Positions 749 through 41,389 of a stretch of 64,000 nt of DNA are shown here, in pieces. A model generated the notes under the pieces. The model had not been told where the DNA came from. It saw only the letters and a program-made list of their open reading frames with translations, and did not search any database. Origin of the DNA: Narcine bancroftii (taxonomy: Eukaryota); NCBI RefSeq assembly GCF_036971445.1, contig NC_091472.1:182218001-182282000 (forward strand), read 5' to 3'. How positions within the stretch are numbered: the first letter of the stretch is position 1; the number at the start of each line of letters is the position of its first letter. The translations under genes were made by a program, and so were the position numbers.

Positions 749-1732
749 AATGGATACCATTTTCTAGGCTGGATGCTCATCCTAACCTCTCAGAACTGCA
801 ATGTGGTAATCTTGAAGACAGCCTCATCGTGGAAACATGGACCACTGGTAAGTAAATGAGTCGACTGCTTAGCCCCTCTGAAACTCTGTTAGATCCCTAT
901 TGACCTATATCTTAAATATATTTGCATATCACCATTCATTAACCCTTAGTATTATTGACTGCCATACTTCTATCAATTACAGTTTGAAATAATCAATAAA
1001 TCTGGCTTCCATGATCTTGAAGAACATTTTTTAAAGATTTCTGCAACATTCTACTTCCTAATATCCTTCTGAATGCCCAACCGGCCCAAAGCATCGGGTC
1101 AGGACCCGAAGGTCTCCGTGTTATTCCCCTGCAGTCCCGTTGCAGGGTCTTGACCTGAGACATAGACCACCATTTTGCCTTCACAGATGCTGCTTGATTT
1201 CCTCCAGCAGTTCACTTTTTTCCACCAAGTTTCCCAGGTTCTAATGGTACCAAGTCACAGTAAAGGCCAGATGTTCTCAGACGTAGGTGGCTGAAATCAG
1301 CAGAATTTTTGAGCCGTATTTTGAAGGGTCAGGGAGCCGGAAGTTAGAGATGGCCAGGCTTTTTTCATATGCTTGCCTCATTTGCTCACACACATCCGGT
1401 GTAAATGCATCTATTTTCATGACAGCTGCGGCGTTGAACATTTAAGCCAGAATGCGAGATAAAGGAACAGCGGCATCATCAAAAATGTCAAAATGTTTGA
1501 CATTCCTCCTATCTGTCAAGATGAGCTTACAATCTTGGACCCTCAGTAAATTGTCTCCTGTTTAACAGCATTATACAAAGGGATCTCCAATACATCTGAA
1601 AAAGTTCAAGTAAATTTCCTTCCTTTTGTGAGACCAAACTGTCCTTTGACATGGAAATTATCACATCAGCAGCTGATTGCAAAATAACCTATGACCACCA
1701 AGTTCATATAACATTTGATTCTTAATTTTTAT

Positions 1733-1975
1733 TAAATTTAGAGAAAAAGCGCAGTAAAGGGGGTCCTTTTGGTCCACAAACCCCTGCTGCCCAAATGCAC
1801 CCATGTGAGCAATGAACCTCATAAACCTGTACGTCTCTGGTACATGGGAGGAAACCAGAGCACCTGGAGGAAACTCACTCGGACACTGAGAGATCATACA
1901 AACCCTTTGCAGGCAGCACCAGATTTGAAAATGGCTCTCTGGCACAGTACCGGCAATACCATTGCACTAACTGCT
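1733..1975 (-). mobile_element. HE1-like tRNA-derived V-SINE (decayed)
   Basis: Reverse strand carries the GGTTTCCTCCCA core and CR1-like 3' tail; aligns by eye to 27092-27342. Confidence 0.7.
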
Positions 1976-2657
1976 TCATCAAGGGTGATTCACATCAAGT
2001 ACCTCACTATAACATGACACATTGACACAATGAGTCATATTTTCTCTACAATGATCAGCTCATTTAAGGGCTGATAGACATCCTCATTCCCTAAATTCCT
2101 AATCGCTACTATTTCTATTGACAGGGATATGGTTCCAAATGTTTTTGAACTTCATTTATGCAGTTTCTTTCAATGTCAGCAAAGAATTGGCAACAAAAAC
2201 TTCCATTGATACAGCATCTCAACACAATCCTCAGGAGATTCATGGAAATGTTATCAAACAAGATTTTGTGTCAAGCTTGGCCAAATATTTGAGTTTTAAG
2301 AAATGTTTAAAGAGAGAACTAAACGTGGGGTTCTGGAAACTGGGACCCCAATATGGAAAATGGGCAATTAAAATTAAGAACTGTGAGATAATTGATAACT
2401 TGAAGGGTTGGAGGGCGCCAGAAAGTTACAGTAAGAGGGAGGGGTGAAGTTTGGAGCAATTGGAGTACAACGTCAGTGCGTCTCTTTGCTTTTGAAGTGA
2501 CAGAAGTGGCCATCATATGAATTGGGTGAGGAAAAGGTTTGAGAGGCTAAACCAGTCTCTGCATAAATTTAGAGTGAAAGACGAATTGGCTGAAGCATCC
2601 GAGATCCTGAGGGTCCTTGACAAGGTGGATGTGGAGAGGATGTTCAAGGATCTAGAA

Positions 2658-2855
2658 ATGTGGTTCTCAACCATTTTTGGTCTAAGGCCCACCTAGCTTC
2701 AGGCCTAACATGTCATGGCCCTCAGTATGACTGAGCAATATTTTCAAGTCATAGGCAGGGCTGTAAGAAACACTTCTTTATCTAATTTGAAGTATTTTAT
2801 TTAACATTTCTAGAGATGTGGAAACATGCTGTGGCCTACTAGTTGAGAACAACTG
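2658..2855. mobile_element. hAT/Charlie-type MITE inserted in a CR1 remnant
   Basis: Termini ATGTGGTTCTCAACC...AGTTGAGAACAACTG; 8-bp TSD ATCTAGAA at 2650-2657 and 2856-2863, matching the NTCTAGAN preference of Charlie elements. Confidence 0.85.
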
Positions 2856-3221
2856 ATCTAGAATTGTGGATCAATGTTTGACATGCTGGGGTTGCCGTCA
2901 GAGGGGTCATAAGTCTTTTGAACTTTCTTTCTCAAAAGTGGAGACAGAGCCTTTGAATATATTTTAAGATAGTGTTAGGTAGGTTCTGGACAAGCAAGAA
3001 GACACAAGGTTACTGGGGACACTCCAGAATTGTGGTTAGAATTTGATCTGTCTTTACCTTGTTGAACTCGGTGCATGTCCAAGGGGCTGAATGTCGTTCT
3101 CCTGCTCCTCTTCATTCGTACCTTTGAATGTTCAGGAGCTTGCACCGGAAAGAGATGCTCTTCTGGGAAAATTAATTGCTTGAAACGTGGACATTGCATT
3201 CTCAAAATTTTTAAGTTTAGA

Positions 3222-3451
3222 TTTTCAAATTTGGACATACAGCACGGTGACAGGCTCTTCCAGCACACAAGCCTGTGGCGCCCAATTACACCCAAATGAT
3301 GTGCAACTCCCGTACGTTTCGGAGGGTGAGAAGAAGCCAAGCACCCCGGGGGAAAACCCACGCAAACACACTGGGACAACATACAGACAGTGCTGGATTT
3401 GAACCCAGGCCACTGCCATTGTCCCAACAGCTACGCTAGCTGTCCTGCCCC
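3222..3451 (-). mobile_element. HE1-like SINE
   Basis: B-box GGTTCAAATCC on the minus strand and tail GTGCTGTATGTCCAAATTT. Confidence 0.8.
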
Positions 3452-3810
3452 CAAAGACTAAATGTCGAAGTCATCAACTGCATATTTAGAACAATGCTGC
3501 AGCATGAATCACCATTTCCAGGAAAACGTTCACCATATCGTGGAAATAGGTTCAGCCCAAAGTTGTCCTTTCACATGCAGTTTTACTTTTTTATTTGCAG
3601 AACAATATTTCCATGTTTAGAGGGCAGTGCATGCCCACTAACTGCTTTGGATAGGCTAATGTTAAATAGTTTGCTTCAGTGGATAAGAAAAACAGCAATA
3701 TTGTGATGCCCAGGAATTGTCTGATGAGGATTTCTTTGAAGCTGGGTTTTGCCAGTGAATAAACAGGACAAGTACAGGACATGATCAGAAAGTAAACAAG
3801 GAAGAGTAAC

Positions 3811-4062
3811 TGTGGTGATACGACCACTAGCCTACTGCAGGGGATGATCTCTGTACCTGCAGAAGGACCACCTGGGGGCTGACTCCACCTGGCCGGCTGT
3901 CAATCAGCTGACCTGAATACAAGCCTGAGGCAGCCCCTCCAGAGCCAGTCACTCAGGAGCCACCACAGCTGAAACTGATGTGTACAGACTTTGAGCAGAA
4001 TAAAGCCTGTAGAACAGTCTTTAGTGTTTTGTGTCTGCTTGCTGCTACCACAGCGTGTCACA
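3811..4062 (+). mobile_element. Solo LTR, 252 bp
   Basis: TGTG...CACA termini, 5-bp TSD GTAAC (3806-3810, 4063-4067), AATAAA at 3999-4004. Confidence 0.85.
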
Positions 4063-6240: not shown

Positions 6241-6503
6241 AAGGAAGGGATTTTTTTGACAATAACCATAAAATTTGCACTTTTGTTCTCTGAGAAGGAA
6301 TGTTAACCCAGTGGAGAATAATTTCCAATAAATTGTGCTGAAAAAAGATTTATAATATTCAAGCATATTGAAATATTTAAAGCCATTTAGAAATATCTGT
6401 GCTCCTGATGACTTGTCTTTTGTAGGTGTCCAGGTTTCCAGGTCGAGCTCCCACATTCTGTTTTGTAAATAGTGTTGCTATGTTGTTCTGATGGTACATA
6501 TGT

Positions 6504-8318
6504 TTTTTTCTTTGGCTTGACTTCGCGGACGAAGATTTATGGAGGGGGTAAAAAGTCCACGTCAGCTGCAGGCTCGTTTGTGGCTGACCAGTCCGATGCG
6601 GGACAGGCAGACACGATTGCAGCGGTTGCAAGGGAAAATTGGTTGGTTGGGGTTGGGTGTTGGGTTTTTCCTCCTTTGCCTTTTGTCAGTGAGGTAGGCT
6701 CTGCGGTCTTCTTCAAAGGAGGCTGCTGCCCGCCAAACTGTGAGGCGCCAAGATGCACGGTTTGAGGCGTTATCAGCCCACTGGCGGTGGTCAATGTGGC
6801 AGGCACCAAGAGATTTCTTTAGGCAGTCCTTGTACCTTTTCTTTGGTGCACCTCTGTCACGGTGGCCAGTGGAGAGCTCGCCATATAATACGATCTTGGG
6901 AAGGCGATGGTCCTCCATTCTGGAGACGTGACCCATCCAGCGCAGCTGGATCTTCAGCAGCGTGGACTCGATGCTGTCGACCTCTGCCATCTCGAGTACC
7001 TCGACGTTAGGGGTGTGAGCGCTCCAATAGATGTTGAGGATGGAGCGGAGACAACGCTGGTGGAAGCGTTCTAGGAGCCGTAGGTGGTGCCGGTAGAGGA
7101 CCCATGATTCGGAGCCGAACAGGAGTGTGGGTATGACAACGGCTCTGTATACGCTTATCTTTGTGAGGTTTTTCAGTTGGTTGTTTTTCCAGACTCTTTT
7201 GTGTAGTCTTCCAAAGGCGCTATTTGCCTTGGCGAGTCTGTTGTCTATCTCATTGTCGATCCTTGCATCTGATGAAATGGTGCAGCCGAGATAGGTAAAC
7301 TGGTTGACCGTTTTGAGTTTTGTGTGCCCGATGGAGATGTGGGGGGGCTGGTAGTCATGGTGGGGAGCTGGCTGATGGAGGACCTCAGTTTTCTTCAGGC
7401 TGACTTCCAGGCCAAACATTTTGGCAGTTTCCGCAAAGCAGGACGTCAAGCGCTGAAGAGCTGGCTCTGAATGGGCAACTAAAGCGGCATCATCTGCAAA
7501 GAGTAGTTCACGGACAAGTTTCTCTTGTGTCTTGGTGTGAGCTTGCAGGCGCCTCAGATTGAAGAGACTGCCATCCGTGCGGTACCGGATGTAAACAGCG
7601 TCTTCATTGTTGGGGTCTTTCATGGCTTGGTTCAGCATCATGCTGAAGAAGATTGAAAAGAGGGTTGGTGCGAGAACACAGCCTTGCTTCACGCCATTGT
7701 TAATGGAGAAGGGTTCAGGGAGCTCATTGCTGTATCTGACCTGACCTTGTTGGTTTTCGTGCAGGAGCAAGGGGGAGACGGCGGCCCCGGCCTCGGTCGA
7801 GTGAGGCAGGCGGAGGCCCCGGTCCGGACAGGGAGTGGGAGGCGGCGGCCCCAGTCCAGGCACAGGGAGAGCAGCAGCGGCCCCGGCCCCGGTCCGGGCG
7901 AAGGGTAGACGGCGGCGGCCCCGATACGGGCAGGAGCAAGGGGGAGGCGGCGGCCCCAGTCCGGGCACAGGGAGAGCAGCGGCGGCCCCGGCCCCGGTCC
8001 GGGCGAAGGGTAGACGGCGGCGGCCCCGATACGGGCAGGAACAAGGGGGAGACGGCGGCCCCGGCCTCGGTCGAGTGAGGCAGACGGAGGCCCCGGTCCG
8101 GGCAGGGAGTGGGAGGCGGCGGCCCCAATCCAGGCACAGGTGAACTGCGGCGGCCTCGGCCCTGGTCCGGGCAGTATGGACCGACCTAGGAGGGGAGGCA
8201 GGCCCCTCCAGCCCGGGTAAGAAACCTGCATAGGAAAAGGCCACTCCGATATAAAACCTACGACCCAAGGACCTCGCTGCCACGTCCCAGCTTGCTTGGC
8301 CACGGCACACGAACCATG
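6504..8318 (-). mobile_element. Young RTE/BovB-type LINE insertion, 5'-truncated, with an appended GC-rich segment
   Basis: RT (KQGCVLAP, LFADD) and C-terminal CxxC...H zinc finger in 6562-7764; 11-bp TSD GGTACATATGT at 6493-6503 and 8319-8329. Confidence 0.95.
7761..8172 (+). repeat. GC-rich higher-order tandem repeat (about 27-40-bp GGCGGCCCC subunits; 105-bp and 274-bp periods)
   Basis: GCAGGA(G/A)CAAGGGGGAG recurs at 7761, 7930 and 8035. Confidence 0.9.
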
Positions 8319-8959
8319 GGTACATATGTAACCTTGGGTTAATATCAGATAGTCAGCTCACTGACAGTGTTAGCCTGTTTCAGCTTTATTCTCTGAAAAG
8401 CGATTTGAATCTTCAAACCGGATTTAGAATCGGTCTCACTCAAGTAACTACATGTCAGAAAACATTCCATTTGCAGTGAAATGTTTCAAACTAGTCTGAA
8501 TTTGTGATTGGTGCTATGTATATGCAAGTCTTTTCCTTTGTTCCCTTACTCGCACAGTAACTGCGAGATCTACCATTATTCCCCACTGCACCCCTACAAA
8601 GATAGGTGATTCTGAAAAGGCTTTTCAAGGTGGACACCAAGAAGCAATTTCTCAGAGTGGGAGGGCATGCATTGAGGCCGATAAACCTTATCATCTGAAG
8701 GTTGCGAATCTTTGCAGTTCTCACTCCAAGATGCCTGGAAGTGGTCAAGCATAGAATAAAATAAAAGCAGGGTTGGTTAGACTTTTAGGATCCAGAGGGA
8801 TCGATGTATGCGATGATCAGATGGGGAAGTGGATTTGAAGTCATCATCTTGTTGAATGGCCACACAGGTTCCACATGTCATCAACTCATGGAGTCATACT
8901 GTCCTGCAATGTAAATACATGCTGACGTCTATGCTGACCATCAATACAGATAGATTCTT

Positions 8960-19776: not shown

Positions 19777-19779
<3 letters not shown>

Positions 19780-21968
19780 CACGTCTGCTTCAGGCTCATT
19801 GGTGATTGACAAGACTGATGCGGGACAGGCAGGCACGGTTGCAACGGTTGCAAGGGAAAATTGGTTGGTTGGGGTTGGGTGTTGGGTTTTTCCTCCTTTG
19901 TCTTTTGTCAGGGAGGTGGGCTCTGCGGTCTTCTTCAAAGGAGGTTGCTGCCCGCCGTCAATGTAGCAGGCACCAAGAGATTTCTTTAAGCAGTCCTTGT
20001 ACCTCTTCTTTGGTGCACCTCTGTCTCGGTAGCCAGTGGAGAGTTCACCATATAACACGATCTTGGGAAGGCGATGGTCCTCCATTCTAGAGACGTGACC
20101 CACCCAGCGCAGTTGGGACTTCATCAGCATGGATTCGATGCTTGCGGACTCTGCCAGCTCGAGTACTTCGATGTTGGTGATGAAGTCATTCCAATGACTG
20201 TTGAGGATGGAACGGAGATAGCGCTGATGGAAGAGTTCTAGGAGCCGTAGGTGATGCTGGTAGAGGACCCATGATTCGGAGCCTAACAGGAGCGTGGGAA
20301 TGACAACGGCTCTGTACACGCTGATCTTTCTGTGTTTCTTCAGGTGGTTGTTTTTCCAGACTCTTTTGTTTAGTCTTCCAAAGGCGCTATTTGCCTTGGC
20401 AAGTCTGTTGCCTATCTCTTTGTCGATCCTTACATCAGATGAAATTGTGCAGCTGAGGTAGGTAAACTGGTTGACCGTTTAGAGTTCTGTGTGCCCGATA
20501 GAGATGTGGGGGGGCTTGTAGTCATGGTGGGGAGCTGGCTGATGGAGGACCTCAGTTTTCTTCAGGCTGACTTCCAGGCCAAACATTTTGGCAGTTTCCG
20601 CAAAACAGGACTTCATGCACTGGAGAGCTGGCTCTGAATGGGCAACTAAAGTGGCATCGTCTTCAAAGAGTAGTTCACGGACAAGTTGCTCTTGTATCTT
20701 GGTGTGAGCTTGCAGGCGCCTCAGATTGAAGAGACTGCCATCCGTGCGGTACCGGATGTAAACAGCGTCTTCATTGTTGAGGTCTTTCATGACTTGTTTC
20801 TGCAACATGCTGAAGAAGATAGTAAAGAGGGTTGGTGCGAGGACGCAGCCTTGCTTCACGCCGTTGTCAATGGAGAAGGGTTCAGAGAGCTCATTGCTGT
20901 ATCTGACGCGACCTTGTTGGTCTTCGTGCAGTTGGATAACCATGTTGAGGAACTTTGGGGGGCATCCGAGGCGCTCTAGTATTTGCCAAAGCCCTTTCCT
21001 GCTCACGGTGTCAAAGGCTTTGGTGAGGTCAACAAAGGTGATGTAGAGTCCTTTGTTTTGTTCTCTGCACTTTTCTTGGAGCAGTCTGAGGGCAAAGACC
21101 ATGTCAGTAGTTCCTCTGTTTGCGCAAAAGCCACACTGTGATTCTGGGAGGACATTTTCGGCGACACTAGGTATTAGTCTATTAAGGAGAATCCTTGTGA
21201 AGATTTTGCCTGCAATGGAGAGCAGCGTGATTCCCCTGTAGTTTGAGCAGTCTGATTTCTCACCTTTGTTTTTGTACAGGGTGATGATGATGGCATCACA
21301 AAGGTCCTGAGGCAGCTTTCCTTGGTCCCAGCAGAGCATGAAAAACTCGTGCAGTTTGGTATGCAGAGATTTGCCGCCAGCCTTCCAGACCTCTGGGGGG
21401 ATTCCATCCATACCTGCTGCTTTGCCACTTTTCAGTTGTTCAATTGCCTTATATGTCTCTTCCCGGGTAAGGACCTCATCCAGCTCTAGACTCAAGGGTT
21501 GTTGAGGGAGCTGGAGCAGGGTGGATTTTTGGACTGAGCGGTTGGCACTGAAAAGGGATTGGAAGTGTTCTGACCATCGATTGAGGTTGGAGATCTTGTC
21601 GCTGAGGAGGACTTTGCCATCTGAGCTGTGCAGAGGGCTTTGGACTTGGGGTGAGGGGCCGTACACAGCCTTTAGAGCCTTGTAAAAACCCCTGAAGTCG
21701 CCAATGTCGGCGCTAAGCTGGGTTCATTTGGTGAGGCTAGTCCACCACTCATTTTGGATCTCCCATAGTTTGCACTGAAGATGGCTGCTTGCGAGACGGA
21801 AGGCTCGTTTTTTCTCTGGCCAGGAAGGCTTTGCAAGGTGAGCCTGGTGGGCAGATCGCTTCTTTGCCAGCAGCTCCTGGATTTCCTGGTTGTTTTCATC
21901 GAACCAGTCCTTGTTTTTCCTGGAGGAAAAGCCCAGTACCTCTTCAGTGGATTGCAGTGGATTGCAGT
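19777..21968 (-). mobile_element. Older degenerate RTE/BovB-type copy
   Basis: ORFs 20479-21666 and 19654-20319 are RTE RT pieces with frameshifts, FADD changed to FEDD, and an internal deletion near 19955. Confidence 0.95.
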
Positions 21969-22794: not shown

Positions 22795-22929
22795 CCTCCC
22801 TTGCAACCGCTGCAACCATGTCTGCCTGTCCCGCATCGGACTTGTCACCCACAAACAAGCCTGCAGCTGACGTGAACATTACCCCTCCATAAATCTTCGT
22901 CCGCGAAGCCAAGCCAAAGAAAAAAGAAA
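22795..22929 (+). mobile_element. Severely truncated RTE 3' end inside the L1
   Basis: Matches the RTE 3' terminus CCATAAATCTTCGTCCGCGAAGCCAAGCC; 8-bp TSD AGGTGTGT (22787-22794, 22930-22937). Confidence 0.9.
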
Positions 22930-29573: not shown

Positions 29574-29696
29574 CAGGTTCATTAAATATATTTAAGAGGG
29601 AATTAGATCTATTTCTTCAGTATAAGGGTATTAAAGGTTACGGAGAGAAGGCGGGGACGTGGTACTGAACTTTAAGATCAGCCGTGATCTCGTTGA
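29574..29696 (+). repeat. Inverted 123-bp copy of the CR1 3' region at 28297-28419
   Basis: Reverse complement with one mismatch by eye (GCGG versus GGGG). Confidence 0.92.
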
Positions 29697-30966
29697 TTAT
29701 CCAACTGCACGAAAACCAAAAAGGTCGGGTCAGATACAGCAATGAGCTCTCTGAACCCTTCTCCATTAACAATGGCGTGAAGCAAGGCTGTGTTATGGCA
29801 CCAACCCTCTTTTCAATCTTCTTCAGCATGATGCTGAACCAAGCCATGAAAGACCCCAACAATGAAGACGCTGTTTACATCCGGTACCGCACGGATGGCA
29901 GTCTCTTCAATCTGAGGCGCCTGCAAGCTCACACCAAGACACAAGAGAAACTTGTCCGTGAACTACTCTTTGCAGACGATGCCGCTTTAGTTGCCCATTC
30001 AGAGCCAGCTCTTCAGCGCTTGACGTCCTGCTTTGCGGAAACTGCCAAAATGTTTGGCCTGGAAGTCAGCCTGAAGAAAACTGAGGTCCTCCATCAACCA
30101 GCTCCCCACCATGACTACCAGCCCCCCCACATCTCCATCGGGCACACAAAACTCAAAACGGTCAACCAGTTTACCTATCTCGGCTGCACCATTTCATCAG
30201 ATGCAAGGATCGACAATGAGATAGACAACAGACTCGCCAAAGCAAATAGCGCCTTTGGAAGACTACACAAAAGAGTCTGGAAAAACAACCAACTGAAAAA
30301 CCTCACAAAGATAAGCGTATACAGAGCCGTTGTCATACCCACACTCCTGTTCGGCTCCGAATCATGGGTCCTCTACCGGCACCACCTACGGCTCCTAGAA
30401 CGCTTCCACCAGCGTTGTCTCCGCTCCATCCTCAACATCCATTGGAGCGCTTACATCCCTAACGTCGAAGTACTCGAGATGGCAGAGGTCGACAGCATCG
30501 AGTCCACGCTGCTGAAGATCCAGCTGCGCTGGATGGGTCACGTCTCCAGAATGGAGGACCATCGCCTTCCCAAGATCGTGTTATATGGCGAGCTCTCCAC
30601 TGGCCACCGTGACAGAGGTGCACCAAAGAAAAGGTACAAGGACTGCCTAAAGAAATCTCTTGGTGCCTGCCACATTGACCACCGCCAGTGGGCTGATATC
30701 GCCTCAAACCGTGCATCTTGGCGCCTCACAGTTTGGCGGGCAGCAACCTCCTTTGAAGAAGACCGCAGAGCCTACCTCACTGACAAAAGGCAAAGGAGGA
30801 AAAACCCAACACCCAACCCCAACCCACCAATTTTCCCCTGCAACCGCTGCAATCGTGTCTGCCTGTCCCGCATCGGACTTGTCAGCCACAAACGAGCCTG
30901 CAGCTGACGTGGACTTTTTACCCCCTCCATAAATCTTCGTCCGCGAAGCCAAGCCAAAGAAAGAAA
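29694..30966 (+). mobile_element. Young RTE/BovB-type LINE, 5'-truncated, inside the CR1
   Basis: Uninterrupted ORF to 30907 (LFADD, zinc finger), AAAG tail; CR1 resumes at ACATCC. Confidence 0.97.
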
Positions 30967-34261: not shown

Positions 34262-37154
34262 CAGCAGAAAAGAACCAGCAGAAAAGAACAAGTTCTACAC
34301 CGACCTGCGCAACCTCATCCAACGTACCCCTACAGCCGACAAGGTTGTCATCCTGGGCGACTTCAACGCTCGTGTCGGCAAAGACTCAGAAACCTGGCCA
34401 GGAATCCTGGGCAAGCATGGCGTCGGCAAGTGCAACGACAATGGGCGCCTCCTGTTGGAGCTCTGCGCAGAACAGCGGCTTGTCATTACAAACACCCTTT
34501 TTCAGCAGAGGGACAGCCTTAAGACCACCTGGATGCATCCCCGATCCAAACACTGGCACCTCCTGGACTACATCCTGGTGCGAGAAAGTGACAAACAAGA
34601 TGTGCTCCACACCAGGGTCATGCCTAGCGCGGAATGCCACACTGACCACCGGCTGGTTCGCTGCAAGCTCAACCTTCACTTCAAGCCAAAGCCCAGGAAC
34701 AATAAAGCCCCCAGAAAGAGGTTCAATGTTGGAAAACTGCAGTCAGACGAAGCGAGAGGAAACTTCCAGGCAAACCTCAAAGCAAAGCTCGACGTTGCAA
34801 CCCGCCTCACGGACCCGTCCCCTGAAACCCTCTGGGATCAGTTGAAGACTACCATACTGCAATCCACTGAAGAGGTACTGGGCTTCTCCTCCAGGAAAAA
34901 CAAGGACTGGTTTGACGAAAACAGCCAGGAAATCCAGGAGCTGCTGGCAAAGAAGCGAGCTGCCCACCAGGCTCACCTTACAAAGCCGTCCTGTCCAGAG
35001 AAAAAACAAGCCTTCCGTCGCGCATGCAGCCATCTTCAGCGCAAACTCCGGGAGATCCAAAATGAGTGGTGGACTAGCCTCGCCAAACGAACACAGCTCA
35101 GCGCGGACATTGGCGACTTCAGGGGTTTCTACGAGGCTCTAAAGGCTGTGTACGGCCCCTCACCCCAAGTCCAAAGCCCGCTGCGCAGCTCAGATGGCAA
35201 AGTCCTCCTCAGCGACAAGATCTCCATCCTCAACCGATGGTCAGAACACTTCCAATCTCTTTTCAGTACCAACCGCTCAGTCCAAGATTCCGCCCTGCTC
35301 CAGCTCCTTCAACAGCCCCTAAGGCTAGAGCTGGATGAGGTTCCCACCCTGGATGAGACATATAAGGCAATCGAACAACTGAAAAGTGGCAAAGCAGCAG
35401 GTATGGATGGAATCCCCCCAGAAGTCTGGAAGGCTGGCGGCAAAACTCTGCATGCCAAACTGCATGAGTTTTTCAAGCTTTGTTGGGACCAAGGTAAACT
35501 GCCTCAGGATCTTCGTGATCCCACCATCATCACCCTGTACAAAAACAAAGGCGAGAAATCAGACTGCTCAAACTACAGGGGAATCACGTTGCTCTCCATT
35601 GCAGGCAAAATCTTCGCTAGGATTCTACTAAATAGAATAATACCTAGTGTCGCCGAGAATATTCTCCCAGAATCACAGTGCGGCTTTCGCGCAAACAGAG
35701 GAACCACTGACATGGTCTTTGCCCTCAGACAGCTCCAAGAAAAGTGCAGAGAACAAAACAAAGGACTCTACATCACCTTTGTTGACCTCACCAAAGCCTT
35801 CAACACCGTGAGCAGGAAAGGGCTTTGGCAAATACTAGAGCGCATCGGATGTCCCCCAAAGTTCCTCAACATGATTATCCAACTGCACGAAAACCAACAA
35901 GGTCGGGTCAGATACAGCAATGAGCTCTCTGAACCCTTCTCCATTAACAATGGCGTGAAGCAAGGCTGTGTTCTCGCACCAACCCTCTTTTCAATCTTCT
36001 TCAGCATGATGCTGAACCAAGCCATGAAAGACCCCAACAATGAAGACGCTGTTTACATCCGGTACCGCACGGATGGCAGTCTCTTCAATCTGAGGCGCCT
36101 GCAAGCTCACACCAAGACACAAGAGAAACTTGTCCGTGAACTACTCTTTGCAGATGATGCCGCTTTAGTTGCCCATTCAGAGCCAGCTCTTCAGCGCTTG
36201 ACGTCCTGCTTTGCGGAAACTGCCAAAATGTTTGGCCTGGAAGTCAGCCTGAAGAAAACTGAGGTCCTCCATCAGCCAGCTCCCCACCATGACTACCAGC
36301 CCCCCCACATCTCCATCGGGCACACAAAACTCAAAACGGTCAACCAGTTTACCTATCTCGGCTGCACCATTTCATCAGATGCAAGGATCGACAATGAGAT
36401 AGACAACAGACTCGCCAAGGCAAATAGCGCCTTTGGAAGACTACACAAAAGAGTCTGGAAAAACAACCAACTGAAAAACCTCACAAAGATAAGCGTATAC
36501 AGAGCCGTTGTCATACCCACACTCCTGTTCGGCTCCGAATCATGGGTCCTCTACCGGCACCACCTACGGCTCCTAGAACGCTTCCACCAGCGTTGTCTCC
36601 GCTCCATCCTCAACATCCATTGGAGCGCTCACACCCCTAACGTCGAGGTACTCGAGATGGCAGAGGTCGACAGCATCGAGTCCACGCTGCTGAAGATCCA
36701 GCTGCGCTGGATGGGTCACGTCTCCAGAATGGAGGACCATCGCCTTCCCAAGATCGTATTATATGGCGAGCTCTCCACTGGCCACCGTGACAGAGGTGCA
36801 CCAAAGAAAAGGTACAAGGACTGCCTAAAGAAATCTCTTGGTGCCTGCCACATTGACCACCGCCAGTGGGCTGATAACGCCTCAAACCGTGTATCTTGGC
36901 GCCTCACAGTTTGGCGGGCAGCAGCCTCCTTTGAAGAAGACCGCAGAGCCCACCTCACTGACAAAAGGCAAAGGAGGAAAAACCCAACACCCAACCCCAA
37001 CCAACCAATTTTCCCTTGCAACCGCTGCAATCGTGTCTGCCTGTCCCGCATCGGACTGGTCAGCCACAAACGAGCCTGCAGCTGACGTGGACTTTTTACC
37101 CCCTCCATAAATCTTCGTCCGCGAAGCCAAGCCAAAGAAGAAAAGAAAAAAAAA
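34262..37154 (+). mobile_element. Longest young RTE/BovB-type LINE copy, truncated within the endonuclease
   Basis: 16-bp TSD AAAAACAAGAATCAAA (34246-34261, 37155-37170); A/AAG tail. Confidence 0.98.
34263..37085 (+). CDS. RTE polyprotein reading frame (partial APE endonuclease, RT, C2H2-like finger); no native start codon
   Basis: Open frame with VILGDFNARVG, HLLDYIL, TDH, NYRGITLL, KQG, LFADD and CNRC...SH; conserved KAFD reads KAFN here. Confidence 0.85.
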   Translation, partial: SRKEPAEKNKFYTDLRNLIQRTPTADKVVILGDFNARVGKDSETWPGILGKHGVGKCNDNGRLLLELCAEQRLVITNTLFQQRDSLKTTWMHPRSKHWHLLDYILVRESDKQDVLHTRVMPSAECHTDHRLVRCKLNLHFKPKPRNNKAPRKRFNVGKLQSDEARGNFQANLKAKLDVATRLTDPSPETLWDQLKTTILQSTEEVLGFSSRKNKDWFDENSQEIQELLAKKRAAHQAHLTKPSCPEKKQAFRRACSHLQRKLREIQNEWWTSLAKRTQLSADIGDFRGFYEALKAVYGPSPQVQSPLRSSDGKVLLSDKISILNRWSEHFQSLFSTNRSVQDSALLQLLQQPLRLELDEVPTLDETYKAIEQLKSGKAAGMDGIPPEVWKAGGKTLHAKLHEFFKLCWDQGKLPQDLRDPTIITLYKNKGEKSDCSNYRGITLLSIAGKIFARILLNRIIPSVAENILPESQCGFRANRGTTDMVFALRQLQEKCREQNKGLYITFVDLTKAFNTVSRKGLWQILERIGCPPKFLNMIIQLHENQQGRVRYSNELSEPFSINNGVKQGCVLAPTLFSIFFSMMLNQAMKDPNNEDAVYIRYRTDGSLFNLRRLQAHTKTQEKLVRELLFADDAALVAHSEPALQRLTSCFAETAKMFGLEVSLKKTEVLHQPAPHHDYQPPHISIGHTKLKTVNQFTYLGCTISSDARIDNEIDNRLAKANSAFGRLHKRVWKNNQLKNLTKISVYRAVVIPTLLFGSESWVLYRHHLRLLERFHQRCLRSILNIHWSAHTPNVEVLEMAEVDSIESTLLKIQLRWMGHVSRMEDHRLPKIVLYGELSTGHRDRGAPKKRYKDCLKKSLGACHIDHRQWADNASNRVSWRLTVWRAAASFEEDRRAHLTDKRQRRKNPTPNPNQPIFPCNRCNRVCLSRIGLVSHKRACS

Positions 37155-40002: not shown

Positions 40003-41389
40003 TGTTGTTTGTGGAGGAAACTGTGACCTCCATCCCTGTCTGGAATGTGTGTATCACAGGTTGTGATATGTCGTCCCCATCTGAAACTTATTCTGAAGTC
40101 ACGTCACCTATTAATCAAGGTTGGACTCCAGCCACCCCTTGATGCACACATCGCCATTGGTAATTTAAATCACCTAGGGTCATTATTGGTTAGAAGCACA
40201 GATTTACTGCAACACTCGCCAAGGCAAATAGCGCCTTTGGAAGACTACACAAAAGAGTCTGGAAAAACAACCAACTGAAAAACCTCACAAAGATAAGCGT
40301 ATACAGAGCCGTTGTCATACCCACACTCCTGTTCGGCTCCGAATCATGGGTCCTCTACCGGCACCACCTACGGCTCCTAGAACGTTTCCACCAGCGTTGT
40401 CTCCGCTCCATCCTCAACATCCATTGGAGCGCTTTCATCCCTAACGTCGAAGTACTCGAGATGGCAGAGGTCGACAGCATCGAGTCCACGCTGCTGAAGA
40501 TCCAGCTGCGCTGGATGAGTCACGTCTCCAGAATGGAGGACCATCGCCTTCCCAAGATCGTGTTATATGGCGAGCTCTCCACTGGCCACCGTGACAGAGG
40601 TGCACCAAAGAAAAGGTACAAGGACTGCCTAAAGAAATCTCTTGGTGCCTGCCACATTGACCACCGCCAGTGGGCTGATAACGCCTCAAACCGTGCATCT
40701 TGGCGCCTCACAGTTTGGCGGGCAGCAACCTCCTTTGAAGAAGACCGCAGAGCCCACCTCACTGACAAAAGGCAAAGGAGGAAAAACCCAACACCCAACC
40801 CCAACCCACCAATTTTCCCCTGCAACCGCTGCAACCGTGTCTGCCTGTCCCGCATCGGACTTGTCAGCCACAAACGAGCCTGCAGCTGACGTGGACTTTT
40901 TACCCCCTCCATAAATCTTCGTCTGCGAAGCCAAGCCAAAGAAGAAAAGAAGAATATAACACCAACGCACAGCACCTATTCTCTTTCTGCCTCGTGGTCC
41001 AAGCCCCGGATACCGCTCCATGCCAGGTTGCTACTGTGGACGTCGCTGGAAGGACCACGGGTAAAGTGTGCACTTCACTGAAGCTGAGCCATAGTATTGC
41101 GATAGATTAATATTTGCAATAGAGCCGCACCCCCATTGATCAGGGAAGCTGGAGTGTGTGTAAGAGTCCCTGTTTATAGTGTGTGAGCGATGTCAAATAT
41201 AGGTTTATCATTGTTGGAGTCTAACTGATGTCTGAGGTGAACTTCTGCATTGTCGCTTATGTGAATTGTAATTGTTACCATTTCACGTTCTCCCCTGTTT
41301 GTTTCCTGTGTGCTAATAAAAGTTACATATGATTGTGACACTTGTGCCCAGACTGTGAACCCATTGAACCTGATACTCCTAATTCAACA
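40003..41389 (+). mobile_element. Solo LTR (about 650 bp net) interrupted by an RTE
   Basis: TGTTG...CAACA termini, flanks CCATC/GCATC (4 of 5 match), AATAAA at about 41315. Confidence 0.65.
40214..40952 (+). mobile_element. Young RTE/BovB-type 3' fragment
   Basis: Near-identical to 36410-37145; (GAA)-type tail. Confidence 0.97.

Follow-up and report, generated by a model that had tools for sequence, protein, structure and literature searches.

A young RTE-type LINE insertion in Narcine bancroftii, likely twin-primed, with an inverted 5' region and 2,178 nt lost

The segment at 6493-8329 of the window (the whole stretch of Narcine bancroftii DNA analyzed here, 64,000 nt of contig NC_091472.1) is best explained as one young insertion of an RTE-type LINE that was likely twin-primed, with its 5' region inverted and 2,178 nt lost, and whose RNP likely keeps a zone within the 5' UTR close to the second nick. 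We assign this reading as a whole a probability of about 0.8.

Layout of the insertion and origin of its GC-rich block

The insertion has a single 3' tail, and one TSD surrounds both of its pieces. The parts are listed below; reference positions are those of a natural copy (L052; 3,956 nt), in which the unique 5' UTR starts at 335 and the ORF at ~701.

6493-6503, unstranded: TSD copy beside the 3' end of the element, GGTACATATGT; in the element sense, ACATATGTACC
6504-6561, minus strand: A/AG-rich tail of an RTE-type LINE, with its short 3' UTR; full-length copies end in (AAG/AAAG/A)n tails
6562-7764, minus strand: 3' part of the single ORF, an open frame from reference 2695 to the stop that encodes a C-terminal Cys/His motif and the RT domain's C-terminal half
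7761-7764, unstranded: GCAG, the 4-nt microhomology at the inversion junction, common to both parts
7761-8139, plus strand: first part of the inverted piece, the GC-rich tandem array of the element's 5' end, with 32-38-nt units and 105/169-nt higher-order repeats
8140-8318, plus strand: second part of the inverted piece, unique 5' UTR, reference 335-513; its end falls in the zone 502-531
8319-8329, unstranded: TSD copy on the 5' side of the element; its first 3 nt, GGT (8319-8321), are element sequence as well, the predicted pairing of the second primer with the RNA

An initial annotation had placed an RT fragment and a GC-rich block within one 11-bp TSD, and we found the exact 11-mer at both ends. 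On both strands of the whole window, GGTACATATGT occurred only at 6493-6503 and 8319-8329, and the chance of such a match is ~2.5e-4 for an 11-mer of the same make-up over 30 x 30 offsets. The RT part (6504-7764, minus strand) matched the 3' end of the family, reference 2695-3956, with 99.4% identity and encodes the C-terminal half of RVT_1. The block (7761-8318; 558 bp, 65-79% GC in 200-bp windows) consists of the tandem units in their higher-order repeats, plus ~180 nt of unique 5' UTR. In the BLAST alignments from which the inner-junction values were taken, the left limit of the block was exactly 7761 when compared with full-length copies, and the alignment of the RT part reached 7764, beyond which the family reads TTGGATAA and the window reads G instead. 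GCAG was therefore assigned to both parts, as had been annotated. At the outer end, the element sequence ran 3 nt (GGT, to 8321) into the right TSD, a point absent from the annotation. In 6400-8500, no Rfam family matched at E = 1 or below. Additionally, a stop-free frame of 596 codons was observed on the minus strand at 6562-8352, leading from the right TSD across the antisense GC array and, in frame, into the RT half; it is likely a product of chance, since long antisense frames are common in such GC arrays.

The origin of the block was evident from the genome itself. A search with the block end returned 867 candidates, and the 40 that were scored were all 98-100% identical. When 9 kb were taken around 40 loci (39 found via the block end and one via the junction), the block and the RT part shared a strand in 22 of the 40, with the block upstream at a distance of kilobases and mostly a long open frame in between. 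In one such copy (L044), the whole block was 99.5% and the RT part 99.7% identical to the window copy, with 2,178 nt separating them. Since the block is co-oriented with and upstream of the ORF in full-length copies, it is inverted in the window copy. The GC-rich block is thus the 5' region of the family itself, which bears out the annotated view that it is the element's own and opposite to the ORF. It had also suggested a twin-priming-like inversion with a multi-kilobase skip, and the 2,178 nt absent from the window copy, together with the microhomologies at the junction and at the TSD, agree with this.

The family and its inverted copies

The L052 ORF encodes 1,065 aa with PF03372/PF14529 (APE) followed by PF00078 (RT) and matches no other Pfam family. 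Several traits of the RTE clade were present, namely a single ORF of ~1,050 aa with APE then RT and without ORF1, a short 3' UTR, an A-rich microsatellite tail and TSD lengths that fit a clade peak of 10-12 bp. This peak is given for RTE in the available portions of PMC4245944 and PMC6007223, and the 11-bp TSD of the window copy lies inside it. Of the 120 homologues that were listed, from records of crustaceans, fish, sea urchin and lancelet at 60-79%, none carried a clade name, and none of the Atlas and PDB matches named RTE. We call the family RTE-type, a probable membership that rests on architecture, tail, TSD length and motifs associated with the RTE clade. The L052 ORF was 74-79% identical to lancelet and sea urchin records and ~70% identical to a carp record; judged from sequence, this similarity across aquatic animals suggests horizontal transfer among them.

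Several other features of the family were observed. A 15-nt minisatellite just 5' of the ORF (L052 589-695) varied from ~4 units to >3 kb among copies that were otherwise 98-99% identical (L051, L070, L079, L152, L215), and the 5' GC array was also variable, reaching 2.5 kb in L069. Small inverted pieces of this array were frequent at the extreme 5' end of near-full-length copies (L056, L062, L066, L069, L077, L150). We also found two young subfamilies with several linked 3' differences (reference 3459-3870), and both short-gap and long-gap inversions were present in both. The window holds five other copies (19777-21958, 22797-22925, 29694-30965, 34272-37144 and 40214-40948), all 5'-truncated and 91-99.6% identical to the reference; none of the five had an inverted piece of at least 60 nt.

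A 67-nt probe for the 3' end had 27,277 exact matches in the genome. As the frequency sample, we took the first 100 of these matches with 5.5 kb upstream of each, all lying on a single chromosome within its first 9.3 Mb. An inverted piece of the family was found at the 5' end of 14 copies (Wilson 95% interval, 8.5-22%), which makes the window copy one of probably thousands; if the sample is typical, 2,000-6,000 copies would be inverted genome-wide. One of the 14 (L146) resembles a snap-back, with 2482-2501 inverted and the colinear part starting from 2482. A TSD of at least 9 bp was present in 13 of the 14 inverted copies versus 27 of the 86 others (p = 1.7e-5). The gap or overlap was <50 nt in 10 of the 14, and the other four skipped 168, 466, 1,309 and ~2,950 nt. 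Among 37 inverted copies for which a TSD was found, 24 showed a microhomology of at least 2 nt between TSD and element. Co-oriented copies with only 5' and 3' parts accounted for 4 of the 100 (L092, L111, L161, L165). These four and three further copies (L050, L053, L073) appear as nascent bipartite forms, in which the 5' region, ending at 582-831, is joined to the last 40-310 nt, and their junctions differed from copy to copy.

Long-gap inversions, the proposed mechanism and its rivals

The inverted pieces of the window copy and of L047, L049 and L175 ended at 512-516 in common, with the second priming position of the window copy at 514-516. Breaks were counted with probes in which 22 nt preceded nine free bases and then three non-reference bases, and gaps >700 nt were called long; the break-probe sets hold gaps either within 55 nt or >700 nt. 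In the 513-521 window, 28 matches were obtained, of which five co-oriented deletions and two duplicates were set aside; the remaining 21 comprised eight long-gap inversions, eight short-gap inversions, one complex case and four that were not classified. At 502-510, 21 of 38 matches were fetched (the first 24 listed minus three indel-like ones), yielding 11 long-gap, seven short-gap and three not classified. At 523-531, nine of 26 were fetched after 17 had been excluded by eye as small indels, and these yielded six long-gap cases and three non-breaks. All matches were examined in the controls. The 401-409 control contained three long-gap and two short-gap cases among seven matches; the ORF controls contained no long-gap case among seven matches at 983, no long-gap and two short-gap among four at 1158, three and three among 28 at 1495, and one and three among eight at 1853.

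Long-gap starts clustered in the zone: 25 fell in its three windows (19 with a TSD) versus four in the four ORF windows. The binomial p value was 1.8e-6, or 1.0e-5 without 513-521, the window chosen after its events had been seen, and the test is a coarse one, in which three adjacent windows of 9-10 nt are set against four ORF controls, with unequal filters and with flanks of only 1.5 kb at 983, 1495 and 1853. Between 61% and 89% of copies are matched by the zone probes and 88-94% by three of the ORF probes, while the 1158 probe is conserved in only 13 of 27 copies. The first, raw test of break rate gave 28/2,473 at 513-521 versus 11/3,369 at two controls, and three further ORF windows were added because one of these two control probes was poorly conserved. 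Long gaps start in the ORF too (L124, L072 and four from the controls), which makes the zone a preference and not a rule. On balance, we consider it probable that long-gap inversions truly prefer 502-531.

Several simple sources of this clustering were rejected or gained no support. The first-strand stops of long-gap copies were nearly all distinct, from 1371 to 3772, which excludes a single deleted master template. The four early events had suggested a ribozyme cut (HDV-like or twister) at 513-516, but no sharp site and no Rfam match were found: the neighboring windows had 38 and 26 raw break matches versus 28 at 513-521, and the breaks spread over 502-530 with no single-base peak. Exposure of a single strand at the zone was not supported, as predicted folding left it not more unpaired than the controls (0.51, 0.29 and 0.20 versus 0.41-0.59).

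We consider it very probable that the window copy was made by twin priming. The endonuclease would nick the two target strands 11 bp apart; the first nick would prime on the AAG-rich 3' tail, with the cDNA ending at reference 2695. The second 3' end (...ACC) would pair with GGU at 5' UTR 514-516 and be extended by 558 nt toward the 5' end of the RNA, and the two cDNAs would then be joined via GCAG. The second priming site would lie 2.2 kb upstream of the first-cDNA stop, unlike the usual L1 site at the stop. Second priming near the first-strand stop is typical of L1 twin priming but not required, and the window copy departs from it with its gap of 2,178 nt.

Since a 30-nt zone of the 5' UTR is common to long-gap events with diverse first-strand stops, the RNP likely holds this zone near the second nick. 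That a protein holding the zone is the cause of the preference is a tentative idea, drawn by analogy. Equally speculative is its extension to RTE retrotransposons at large, which may hold a defined 5' UTR segment at the second nick during integration. If the first cDNA stopped early, the second strand would prime at the held segment, giving a long-gap inversion such as the window copy; alternatively, the first cDNA would jump to the held segment and give a co-oriented bipartite copy.

The competing account that survives best, which we regard as doubtful, is twin priming without a preferred site, with a minority of events priming anywhere upstream and the 5' UTR excess arising from probe design or a local stall. 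The control windows are few, long-gap starts were also seen at 401-409 and in the ORF, and starts in the 5' UTR are mostly long-gap because the first strand stops beyond 2700 in 81 of the 100 sampled copies. Nevertheless, the absolute counts per window (25 in three, four in four) argue for a preference, and the excess was found despite the lower probe match at the zone and although only part of the zone matches were fetched. A first-strand stall at 515-530 would account for the short-gap events there but not for the long-gap ones.

Considerably less probable is the use of two RNAs, in which a full RNA was copied at the first nick and a separate short 5' transcript of the family, ended, paused or cleaved near 500-530, at the second, the cDNAs then being joined. 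This would account for the long gap and the clustering with no need for RNA looping, and subfamily marks of the 5' and 3' parts were discordant in four of 21 callable long-gap copies. However, the marks were concordant in the other 17, including the window copy, and the microhomology of at least 2 nt in 24 of 37 copies fits internal annealing. The concordance is itself ambiguous, since subfamilies active at different times could also produce agreement, and nine of 30 long-gap copies were not callable; the unique 5' UTR alone lacked linked sites for phasing, and the array k-mer call was noisy. The breaks also extend over at least 30 nt without a single-base peak, Rfam gave no match, and few copies begin at 513-521 (16 matches, of which six are one repeated variant and several more are indels).

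It is very improbable that the layout reflects a mis-assembly, a later rearrangement or the nesting of two insertions. More than 27,000 near-identical copies favor both recombination and mis-assembly, and among the matches listed from four runs, read as fragmented contigs, no contig bridged the inner junction at 7761-7764 and none carried an empty-site joint. The outer junctions were bridged by 26-29 nt only, in runs that are possibly the assembly's own source, and one 151-nt piece from the run of a second organism matched 8308-8458 without a difference but included only 11 nt of the element, too little to count. Against these points, a perfect single TSD abuts both outer ends, there is one 3' tail only, and this arrangement recurs at dozens of further loci, each with a TSD and junctions of its own; an inversion that arose later would not end precisely at the TSD with a 3-nt pairing. 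An artefact is unlikely in view of the clean TSD and of the layout's recurrence at other loci. Finally, snap-back of the first cDNA, of which L146 looks like an example and for which such junctions are described for R2 transgenes in the available part of PMC11371274, and capture of an unrelated RNA, the alternative named in the annotation, can both be dismissed for the window copy, since the block shares 99.5% identity with the 5' region of the family and the inverted piece, which the colinear part lacks, comes from 2.2 kb upstream of where the cDNA stopped and so was not copied from that cDNA.

Comparison with known systems

In the literature searched, nearly all descriptions of twin priming concern mammalian L1, and one cell study found it to depend on element and host. 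That search yielded no report of twin priming in RTE, although older studies of the RTE pathway may report RTE inversions, and none of a preferred zone for RTE second priming; the portion of PMC13295347 available does not mention inversion. The present family, with >27,000 near-identical copies of which about one in eight is inverted, provides natural events by the thousand in a clade other than L1, and counting them makes the rules of second-strand priming testable. The window copy itself is one of many; what gives it value is the frequency across the family, along with the long-gap class favoring one zone. This class and its zone bear on the handling of the second strand by the RNP, a still-open step of LINE integration. 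If a 5' UTR segment is indeed held, the long-known 5'+3' bipartite elements of RTE and SINE bodies would have a single cause, and the second-strand RNA contact of an APE-type LINE would have been mapped from genomic scars alone. Development of RTE proteins for gene writing, with cognate 5' and 3' UTRs, is under way (PMC13708176, in part), and inverted and gapped products are relevant to such tools.

The papers compared below are cited from the parts available. Twin-primed L1 insertions of human and chimpanzee (PMC2912911, PMC4245944, bioRxiv 10.1101/2024.08.27.596794) likewise have an inverted 5' piece and a colinear 3' piece in one TSD, with microhomology at the TSD and inversion junction and mostly small gaps or overlaps, and inverted L1 copies also keep intact, longer TSDs (PMC4245944, PMC2912911). 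The L1 inversion rate is ~10% of all copies and 31% of young TSD-flanked ones (PMC2912911), of the same order as the 13-14% in the RTE-type family. In contrast, the median internal deletion in human L1 is 14.5 bp (bioRxiv 10.1101/2024.08.27.596794), whereas four of 14 inverted copies here skip >150 nt and two >1 kb. Unlike L1, the RTE-type family has a single ORF, a microsatellite tail, TSDs of 9-14 bp and long-gap events favoring one 5' UTR zone. Inversion has been predicted to require a 3' overhang long enough for pairing with the RNA, with which TSDs of 9-14 bp are consistent; among LINE inserts in cultured cells, inversions were seen only when L1 was assayed in human cells, a single Nimb-2_DR insert being the exception (PMC4245944). 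That assay set had no RTE element, and here inversions were found at scale in vivo.

5'-inverted, twin-primed L1 insertions were reportedly described by Ostertag and Kazazian in 2001. The bipartite non-autonomous form, reported only for RTE, Ingi, Vingi and R2 (PMC5786205), similarly keeps the 5' UTR and 3' end and loses the middle, as in the 4/100 co-oriented copies here; bipartite elements are co-oriented and able to multiply, whereas copies of the window type have an inverted 5' part, each being a separate dead event. In R2, a protein subunit is placed on the second-strand side by a 5' protein-binding RNA (PMC6895275), to which the zone described here may be analogous, and antisense pieces can likewise occur at R2 5' junctions (PMC11371274). 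Unlike the RTE-type family, R2 is site-specific and uses a restriction-like nuclease, and its snap-backs copy existing cDNA.
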